Below, in pieces: positions 2,644-7,357 of a DNA stretch of 64,000 bases. Position numbers and translations under genes: made by a program. The notes under the pieces are model-generated. The model was not told the origin of the DNA. It was given only the letters and a program-made list of their open reading frames with translations, and ran no database searches. Numbering within the stretch: position 1 is the stretch's first letter; each line of letters starts with the position of its first letter. The stretch is from Promethearchaeota archaeon Loki_b32 (GTDB taxonomy: Archaea; Asgardarchaeota; Lokiarchaeia; Sigyniarchaeales; SOKP01): contig NJBH01000006.1 of assembly GCA_005223125.1 (NCBI GenBank), positions 1-64,000 on the forward strand, read 5' to 3'.

Positions 2644-2705
2644 TAACTTTGGAAGGATTCGAACCTCCGACCAAAGCAATGCTCTACTAACTAAGCAACA
2701 AAGAC
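2644..2705 (-). pseudogene. tRNA-like element or pseudo-tRNA lacking an anticodon arm
   Basis: Minus strand reads GTCTTTG TT GCTT-AGTTAGTA-GAGC A TTGCTTT GGTC GGAGG-TTCGAAT-CCTTC CAAAGTT A, giving a D arm, a T arm and an imperfect acceptor stem. Confidence 0.65.
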
Positions 2706-3723: not shown

Positions 3724-3978
3724 TTGAAAAAGAACTGGGTTAAATTGAATCTATTCTATATTGGACAATCAACAAAGAAACATCAAATCTTTAGAGCAAA
3801 ACAATGGAATAAGAGCTTAGAAAAGATTTTTAAAAACATAATTTATAATGAAAAATACGAAAAAATTGGATTTATTAAAGATATATTTGGTCCTATAAAT
3901 TTTCCCTTTATCTCTATAAAAATCTTACCTAATCAATCCTTTAACCCTAATGATAAATTCTTCACTAAGGTAGCCTAG
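3724..3978 (+). CDS. gar1: H/ACA RNP subunit Gar1/Naf1 family
   Basis: IGFIKDIFGPINFPFISIK motif; gar1 upstream of tfb is a common archaeal arrangement. Confidence 0.75.
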   Translation: MKKNWVKLNLFYIGQSTKKHQIFRAKQWNKSLEKIFKNIIYNEKYEKIGFIKDIFGPINFPFISIKILPNQSFNPNDKFFTKVA

Positions 3979-6235: not shown

Positions 6236-6339
6236 AACAAGTCTGTCTTTTTAAAAGCAGATTCTGTAATTGACTTAATTTTTTCAAGAGAAAAATGGCA
6301 ATAATAACATTTTTATTTTCAATACTCTATTATAATACT

Positions 6340-6638
6340 GGGAAAGCGATGATGGAATAACCGCTTCTTCGAGGACTCATATGAATAAAAAATGATTATG
6401 CAGTGCAAAACGATGCGAATATTCGGAGTTTAATAATCAATAAATGCAAAATTAAAATGGGCTTTTTACTGAGCAATGGTAAAAACCACAGCAATGAAGC
6501 TAAAGTCAGCAACCCAGATTGCAGACATGATTATGTCCCAAAGTCAAATGCCTGACACGAGAGAACGTCTTTGATCTAAAGGGAAGATTTCCTTAAAATG
6601 AAAAAGACCGTGTTAGTGTTTCAGGCGACATACTTCCC
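6340..6638 (+). ncRNA. Candidate structured RNA with K-turn hairpins followed by ACA (H/ACA-like)
   Basis: Hairpins 6445-6523 and 6550-6626 each contain UGA...AAUGA K-turn geometry and are each followed by gACA (6525-27, 6628-30). GGGAAAG/CTTCCC could close the ends. Confidence 0.45.
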
Positions 6639-6862
6639 TAAATTATTAAAAAATGATTAAGTTATAAATTAACTTAAAAACCTATCCATATCCCCAACCC
6701 CACGTTTTACTGAATTAGTCAGTGATTTATAAAAATAACCTTTATATGGTAATCTGATTCCAGTGTTGTTGGTTTTGGTTAGCCTGTTATTAATCGTTTC
6801 GACAATTATTTTATTATTTGCAGTCTAACATTTTTGGAGAAATAATGGCATCAAAACTGTTT

Positions 6863-7357
6863 TTAAGAGAAAGGAAAAGGATCTTTTTTATTTACACCTT
6901 TAATTCTATCTTCGATTCTTGATATCAAACTAGTTAAACAATCAAAGAGAATTTTTCTTATTTGTTCATAAGTAATATCGATTTCTATATCATTACTATT
7001 ACGAAAATCGTCATCTTTATAAAGTGATTTAAATACATTTTTAGTTTTAAGGATTTTATAAGAGCTATCTACTATAAACGCATACATGCTTTCACTTTCA
7101 TATTCTTTTTTCATTATTAGTGAAAGCATGACAAATTCTTTTTTCCCACGTGCCCATTCAGAAGGGATCTCGAAATTAAAATTGATGATTTTCTTTTTTT
7201 TAGTAATGAGAACAATTTCAAAAAAGGTTTCATCAATTTCCAAATCGAAAAACTTCAATAATCTATTTATAATGTCTTCTTCAAGTTTTTCATTAGGATA
7301 TGACATCAATACACTTGGACCTTTAATTTGATGAAAATAAGTAAGGACTAAGTGCAT
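6863..7357 (-). CDS. Longin/uDENN-like domain protein
   Basis: N-terminal LVLTYFHQIKGPSVL motif and FEIPSEWARG, typical of Asgard longin-like proteins. Confidence 0.55.
   Translation of the reverse strand: MHLVLTYFHQIKGPSVLMSYPNEKLEEDIINRLLKFFDLEIDETFFEIVLITKKKKIINFNFEIPSEWARGKKEFVMLSLIMKKEYESESMYAFIVDSSYKILKTKNVFKSLYKDDDFRNSNDIEIDITYEQIRKILFDCLTSLISRIEDRIKGVNKKDPFPFS

Follow-up and report, generated by a model that had tools for sequence, protein, structure and literature searches.

A conserved three-motif RNA gene of Lokiarchaeia, a predicted box H/ACA guide related to HgcG and Pab40

The window, a 64,000-nucleotide stretch of Lokiarchaeia DNA, contains an intergenic gap of 627 bp (6236-6862) between two genes that a preliminary description of this DNA had named roadblock and longin, the first of which gave a weak Pfam match to MAPKK1_Int (E 2.9e-5) and the second no Pfam match. 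That description had reported a gap of about 620 bp without open reading frames of 60 aa or more, and gar1 at 2.4 kb upstream; both statements proved accurate, the longest reading frame being 50 aa and the Pfam Gar1 gene lying at 2.36 kb, and every coordinate and motif that it listed was present in the sequence. It had proposed an H/ACA-like RNA of two or three hairpins from hairpins A and B, here designated motifs 2 and 3. The multi-hairpin reading was borne out by covarying helices and by an ANA box in every motif, though a further hairpin at 6362-6421, here motif 1, had been overlooked. The RNA region has a GC content of 37.5%, against 26% in its flanks, and the spacing of an upstream TTTATA/TTTTTA element is kept across 30 copies from the genus despite differing upstream genes (a sigma-70 scan is inapplicable to archaeal DNA). 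Elsewhere in the window, a tRNA-like Rfam match (2644-2705, minus strand, 34.6 bits) has a short anticodon arm and receives no call from ARAGORN, which reports only 15 tRNAs for the genome; it may be a tRNA that is split, carries an intron or has decayed.

Table 1. Features of the RNA locus and its surroundings in the window (K-turn, kink-turn; K-loop, kink-loop).
Feature	Position	Strand	Details
gar1	3724..3978	+	Pfam Gar1 above cut-off; RNP protein partner, linkage loose
TATA-like element	6310..6315	+	about 25-30 nt upstream of invariant GGGA; putative own promoter
Candidate three-motif box H/ACA guide RNA	6340..6633	+	predicted ends
5' arm GGGA	6340..6343	+	one strand of the helix closing motifs 1 and 2, opposite 6536-6539
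C-stem arm and box C-like strand GAUGAUG (6348-6354)	6344..6354	+	extra basal kink-turn; UGA invariant
Motif 1	6362..6421	+	lower stem, pocket UCGAGG 6369-6374 / GCAA 6405-6408, upper stem; ANA box 6419-6421
Motif 1 K-loop	GA 6383, GA 6394	+	motif 1 apex
50-aa GTG ORF	6403..6555	+	judged a non-gene
C-stem arm with box D-like CGGA strand	6424..6431	+	basal kink-turn; GA in 29/30 copies
UAAUCA arm	6434..6439	+	pairs with UGAUUA 6528-6533; encloses motif 2 and its ACA
Motif 2 (hairpin A)	6445..6527	+	pocket AUGGGC 6457-6462 / AACCCAG 6511-6517; ACA 6525-6527
Motif 2 K-turn	CUGA 6469 / AUGA 6494	+	hairpin A apex
3' arm UCCC	6536..6539	+	closing helix; pairs with GGGA 6340-6343
Motif 3 (hairpin B)	6550..6630	+	pocket GAGAG 6559-6563 / GUUAGU 6612-6617; ACA 6628-6630
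Motif 3 K-turn	GA 6573 / AUGA 6598-6601	+	hairpin B apex

BLAST searches recovered the whole element from 34 of 36 genomes of the same genus at 68-87% identity, the conserved block running from the invariant GGGA at 6340 to just past the last ACA, and the region occurs once in its own genome. A covariance model of motif 1 matched 114 of 126 genomes searched in this family, across 13 genera, nearly always as a single copy, and the three motifs were found in unchanged order in other Asgard families and orders. The closed genome G055 harbours a copy near 1,719,650-1,719,910 on the minus strand. Another closed genome, G044, yielded no copy by models, BLAST, synteny or patterns, though the models had initially missed the copies of G055 and G050 too. 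Amongst relatives the RNA gene lies near a roadblock-tfb-gar1 cluster, but its orientation and immediate neighbours vary; since it flips relative to gar1, it is not a gar1 co-transcript, and such mobility would be expected of a gene with its own promoter. Comparison of window positions 6236-7357 with 30 related loci (L001-L030) also revealed that, within one genus, the DNA surrounding the RNA gene has often been inverted locally, with the roadblock gene, a 164-aa gene and cobalt ABC genes arranged in several ways.

Covariation in orthologous intergenic regions, a check suggested in the preliminary description, was detected in the helices of all three motifs and in each case backs a hairpin of lower stem, pocket and upper stem. 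Paired cells amounted to 93.5, 92.2 and 89.6% for motifs 1, 2 and 3, respectively. Changes on both sides of a helix numbered 48, 36 and 78 cells where shuffles averaged 21.5, 12.0 and 25.7, the observed numbers being reached by 0 of 500 shuffles for each motif, though these counts lean upward as the structures came from the alignments on which they were counted and the sequences are related rather than independent. Slid controls gave far lower two-sided counts than the true helices, and single-sequence folding was weakly above shuffles (z -1.6). The lower stem of motif 2 is formed by TGCAA (6445-6449) and TTGCA (6519-6523), and that of motif 3 by GCCTGA (6550-6555) and TCAGGC (6621-6626), with GTCTTT/AAAGAC above it. 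Hairpins A and B do both begin with AATGC in the window, as had been pointed out, yet this is a coincidence of the window's clade, hairpin A of most relatives starting with UCCUG.

The features that characterize archaeal H/ACA motifs were found in each hairpin. Directly 3' of the lower stem, both A residues of the ANA box are kept in 30/30 copies of every motif, the box being AUA, ACA or AAA in motif 1, ACA (29) or AUA (1) in motif 2 and ACA (19) or AAA (11) in motif 3. The pockets of the window copy lie 14, 14, and 14 or 16 nt from the ANA box, for an H/ACA criterion of 14-16 nt, and the distance for motif 1 is 14 nt in 30/30 copies. In the window copy every motif has a K-turn or K-loop with tandem GA pairs, an element for which the H/ACA criterion is a position about 9-10 pairs above the pocket. 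In relatives this apical element is mostly canonical in motifs 1 and 3; the K-turn previously noted in hairpin A is real in the window, but both of its GA pairs (the canonical state) occur in only 7 of 30 genus copies. Genes for all four partner proteins, Cbf5, Nop10, Gar1 and L7Ae, are encoded in the genome. Judged from these sequence features, it is highly probable that window positions 6340-6633 (plus strand) constitute a conserved RNA gene of about 295 bases, a three-motif box H/ACA guide that would be the Lokiarchaeia-type relative of HgcG/Pab40/Pf7/Afu4.

Several elements beyond the three hairpins were also conserved. An additional kink-turn is formed beneath motif 1 by RUGAUG (6348-6354) and nnGA (6424-6427), and the helices flanking it covary, with changes on both sides. 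This basal kink-turn is present in the window's class and in the distant Asgard copies L115, L117, L118 and L124, and absent from L114, L116, L119, L121 and L122; no published description of it was found in a limited literature search. The GGGA/UCCC helix that closes around motifs 1 and 2 was paired in 29-30 of 30 copies by RNAalifold and displays no covariation because its sequence is almost invariant. The UAAUCA/UGAUUA helix has 98.9% of its cells paired and one compensatory change. The ACAUGA that follows motif 2 fits ANANNA, its UGA being situated in the closing helix. A further helix around motif 3, GCAUA/UAUGC, occurs in 23 of 30 copies and is absent from the clade of the window genome. 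The basal kink-turn is most likely an extra L7Ae site that would protect the 5' end.

HgcG, Pab40, Pf7, Pho40 and Afu4 (RF00064; PMC2377435, PMC4652768) likewise consist of tandem motifs, three each in Pab40, Pf7, Pho40 and Afu4 (PMC2377435), with K-turns or K-loops and ANA boxes. The HgcG consensus shares its pocket words, which read CGAGG/GCGA, AACCC and GUGUUA there, with the window RNA. The window RNA differs from this group in its basal C/D-like kink-turn and the helices enclosing its ACA boxes, neither of which the HgcG consensus has, in the mismatch and bulge of motif 2, in its AU-rich stems, and in the 5' guide strand of motif 3, which is GAGAG rather than GGGUUA. An Rfam scan of the window gave no relevant match in the gap at E values up to 10, and the window copy does not match RF00064 at its gathering threshold (77 bits). 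The HgcG model matched 14 of 151 Asgard genomes, all below the cut-off (best E 4e-13, best copy 51.9 bits), and none of 25 scanned genomes of the window's family. Our own models R1 and R2 match, with motifs 1 and 3, the same Asgard loci that HgcG matches, for instance L115, L117, L118 and L124; as the window copy has no direct HgcG match, homology rests on these bridging loci, and the RNA is filed as a putative divergent relative of RF00064 rather than as a member of that Rfam family. Pattern scans for the named Thermococcales HgcG loci returned nothing or chance matches. Some Asgard copies are reduced in modules: L124 (1540-1732) is a naturally two-hairpin RNA made up of motifs 1 and 3 alone, and in L120 and L125 a short pocket-less hairpin accompanies motif 3. 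In L114 and L116 (1363-1788), from two genomes, the HgcG-like RNA is followed at a distance of about 65 nt by a tRNA gene of the same orientation.

Candidate targets were sought in 16S and 23S rRNA, using the archaeal 23S gene of the window genome, G000 (contig C48, 89955-93418, L031) and the 16S of a congener, the genome's own 16S being split in the assembly. E. coli numbers were assigned through alignment spacing to the 23S gene L139, at a constant offset of 51 from the E. coli positions; P. abyssi numbers were converted from the papers, an offset of 92 placing 2588 at 2496. The preliminary description could assign no convincing target, but all three motifs have candidate sites in 23S rRNA, though the sites are too conserved to show covariation between guide and target. 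Candidates in 16S (GGGUAC-U and AACAC-U) and at 23S helix 89 and GUUCUC were tried and dropped, as they did not hold up in both subgroups or in the organism's own rRNA.

The GCAA and UCGAGG strands of motif 1 pair with 23S UUGC-UU-CCUCGA around U2742 (E. coli 2496) through ten Watson-Crick pairs in a canonical 4+6 arrangement, and an unbiased rRNA scan ranked this site first for the motif. If the RNA is a guide, motif 1 would very likely direct modification of the E. coli 2496 equivalent. The invariant GAGAG and GUUAG of motif 3 fit 23S helix 69, UAACUAUAACUCUC, with 4+5 pairs and three to five unpaired target bases, in either of two registers: one would expose U2139 (E. coli 1915) with five bases unpaired, the other U2141 (1917) with three. 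The unbiased scan did not list the helix 69 site for this motif. Unpaired UNN is functional in Pab19 (PMC2377435), and unpaired UNUN in Haloferax volcanii sR-h45, according to PMC7075261 and PMC2584109, offers a precedent for motif 3. The difference from HgcG in the 5' guide strand favours 1917 or the pair 1915 and 1917, and motif 3 would probably direct the 1915 and/or 1917 equivalents of helix 69. In motif 2, AACCCAG pairs with the CUGGGUU that precedes 23S U2863 (E. coli 2586), 14 nt from the ACA; its 5' guide strand contains one G-A mismatch and a 5-nt bulge, giving an atypical pairing of 7+3 or more with a mismatch, and the site was ranked fifth in the unbiased scan. Amongst the predicted targets this is the weakest, with about an even chance that motif 2 would direct the 2586 equivalent. 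Shuffled rRNA equalled the observed pairing in 1 of 300 sets for motif 1, 3 of 300 for motif 2 and 5-9 of 300 for motif 3, although pockets 2 and 3 were defined after their sites had been seen and their counts therefore overstate significance.

The predicted sites at 2496, 2586 and helix 69, in the functional core of the large ribosomal RNA, are the same, and in the same order, as those known or predicted for Pab40/Pf7/Afu4. Pab40 modifies P. abyssi 2588 through motif 1 and 2016 through motif 3; the site predicted for motif 2 of Afu4 and Pf7 is 2678, which is modified in H. marismortui and unmodified in P. abyssi itself (PMC2377435). According to PMC2584109, the E. coli equivalents are 1915 for P. 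abyssi 2016 and 2586 for the H. marismortui site. The two stem-loops of Haloferax volcanii sR-h45 are homologues of Pf7 stems II and III, have an H-type ANA box as well and guide the 2586, 1915 and 1917 equivalents; that RNA is without motif 1 and contains a spacer of 56 bases, and a basal kink-turn is not described in the accessible text of these two sources (PMC7075261, PMC2584109).

On this reading, L7Ae would bind the apical K-turn or K-loop of each motif, and Cbf5, Nop10 and Gar1 the lower stem and ANA box. Each pocket would then pair with both sides of a 23S uridine, which Cbf5 would isomerize to pseudouridine, whilst the basal kink-turn, together with the helices that enclose the ACA boxes, would most likely stabilize the RNA and, through a further L7Ae, protect its ends. 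Transcription, protein binding, modification and the role of the extra elements are all matters that we infer.

One modification of this scheme, compatible with it, is that motifs 1 and 3 are guides and motif 2 is degenerate or retargeted, serving as a spacer or for another RNA target; this is a serious possibility, somewhat short of even. Besides its atypical geometry, motif 2 has lost the ACCC guide strand in 5 of 30 copies, its K-turn is non-standard in most copies, L124 does without it, and the supposed target is not modified in P. abyssi. In the family f2 copies L113, L143 and L094 its pocket differs (GGGC / AGCAU, without ACCC), and no convincing rRNA target was found for that pocket. 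Nonetheless, 25 of 30 copies place AACCC or ACCC 13-14 nt from the ACA, and this word reappears across Asgard archaea; the window copy has seven contiguous pairs on the 3' side, which published work regards as the more important, and U1943, tried as an alternative target, fits poorly.

The resemblance of the basal kink-turn to box C/D elements raises a different question. It could be that the C/D-like kink-turn and the closing helices form a second protein platform in a subset of Asgard archaea, with extra L7Ae and possibly Nop5-fibrillarin, in a nested C/D-plus-H/ACA architecture undescribed in archaea; we regard this as improbable. Were it true, the RNA would represent an ancestor type whose splitting gave rise to snR46, the eukaryotic guide for 2496, and to snR191/U19, which serve helix 69. 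Composite RNAs have parallels, eukaryotic scaRNAs such as U85 holding C/D and H/ACA elements in one molecule. Pab21 (PMC2377435), in which an H/ACA motif is followed by a C/D motif, similarly unites the two kinds in one RNA; in the window RNA the C/D-like strands instead enclose one H/ACA motif, without a methylation guide.

Still less probable is a composite particle for methylation as well as pseudouridylation, in which the strands around motif 1 also recruit Nop5-fibrillarin. It would account for a conserved, covarying kink-turn of RUGAUG at the 5' end and nnGA after the ANA, found in distant Asgard copies too and lacking from the HgcG consensus. Set beside the C/D boxes RUGAUGA and CUGA of a terminal K-turn, this conserved K-turn has a box C-like strand that ends in G. 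Against the composite reading, the box D-like strand reads CUGA in no more than 4 of 30 copies, the element is missing from several Asgard copies, and upstream of any of the four D-like boxes the longest rRNA antisense match was 8 nt, with none of at least 9 nt conserved. A C/D methylation guide function was rejected, antisense of at least 10 nt being absent upstream of D/D'. An 8-nt match of motif 2 to 23S rRNA (16 of 30 copies) was also discarded as a C/D guide, being too short and within a stem.

Comparably remote is a structured RNA with an H/ACA fold that does not modify its target, acting as an rRNA chaperone or in processing like snR30. The ACA boxes do lie inside enclosing helices rather than on free tails, and the motif 3 pocket can be closed by CAC/GUG and AAC/GUU, 100% paired, but motif 1 is canonical in every respect and directed at a uridine that the related guide of Pyrococcus modifies, and conserved bases cluster at the pocket tops, as in guides. 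Conservation that followed the 50-aa GTG reading frame had been named beforehand as evidence against an RNA; the frame exists in this genome, but it is uncalled in public assemblies and intact in 1 of 30 orthologues (the others having stops, a lost start or frameshifts), an outcome that favours the RNA. Together with its own TATA-like box, the element changes orientation and neighbours as one block, and a small protein gene, or a leader that regulates an adjacent gene, has a negligible probability.

The preferred reading, a divergent three-motif guide, would extend a guide of Thermococcales, Archaeoglobus and Haloferax to the Asgard archaea and add to a whole family of Asgard archaea an unannotated RNA gene that Rfam missed; no report of Asgard H/ACA RNAs was found in a literature search that reached a minority of the subscription papers. 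A guide common to these groups would mean that guide and sites date to their common ancestor. The reading also predicts exact sites of pseudouridine in Asgard ribosomes, two or three of which are modified in yeast as well. Yeast snR191 and human U19 serve 25S 2258 and 2260 (yeast numbering), equivalent to E. coli 1915 and 1917, and yeast snR46 serves 25S 2865, equivalent to 2496 by an offset of 369; yeast U2955, the equivalent of 2586, is unmodified. snR191/U19 and snR46 are separate two-hairpin RNAs without K-turns. The sites are equivalent to those of the window RNA, but a common target does not show homology of the guides, and as 2496 and 1915/1917 are also guided in Pyrococcus or Haloferax, they are old common features. 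The relevance to the origin of two-hairpin snoRNAs suggested in the preliminary description found no support: archaeal H/ACA RNAs normally have between one and three hairpins, Pab40/Pf7/Afu4 and sR-h45 are published relatives, and in place of the eukaryotic layout (hairpin, H box hinge, hairpin and ACA tail, without K-turns) the window RNA has three motifs, each with a K-turn.

Several features of the rRNA sequences were noted. The reference L139 (NZ_AP027616.1), listed as a 'plasmid' of 2911 bp in an E. coli assembly, consists of a lone 23S gene unlike that of E. coli and is likely an assembly contaminant. G000 also encodes a second rRNA operon, of bacterial type (contig C68, 17319-23294, L032), with a 4029-nt 23S gene that lacks the CCUCGA target and with tRNA-Ile and tRNA-Ala upstream; it is probably a contaminant. 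The archaeal 23S gene L031 carries two insertions, one immediately past helix 69 and one following GUGAGA near 2880, both absent in G031, and G077 and G064 have other insertions. These are likely rRNA introns, one of which interrupts the sequence just beyond the motif 3 target.
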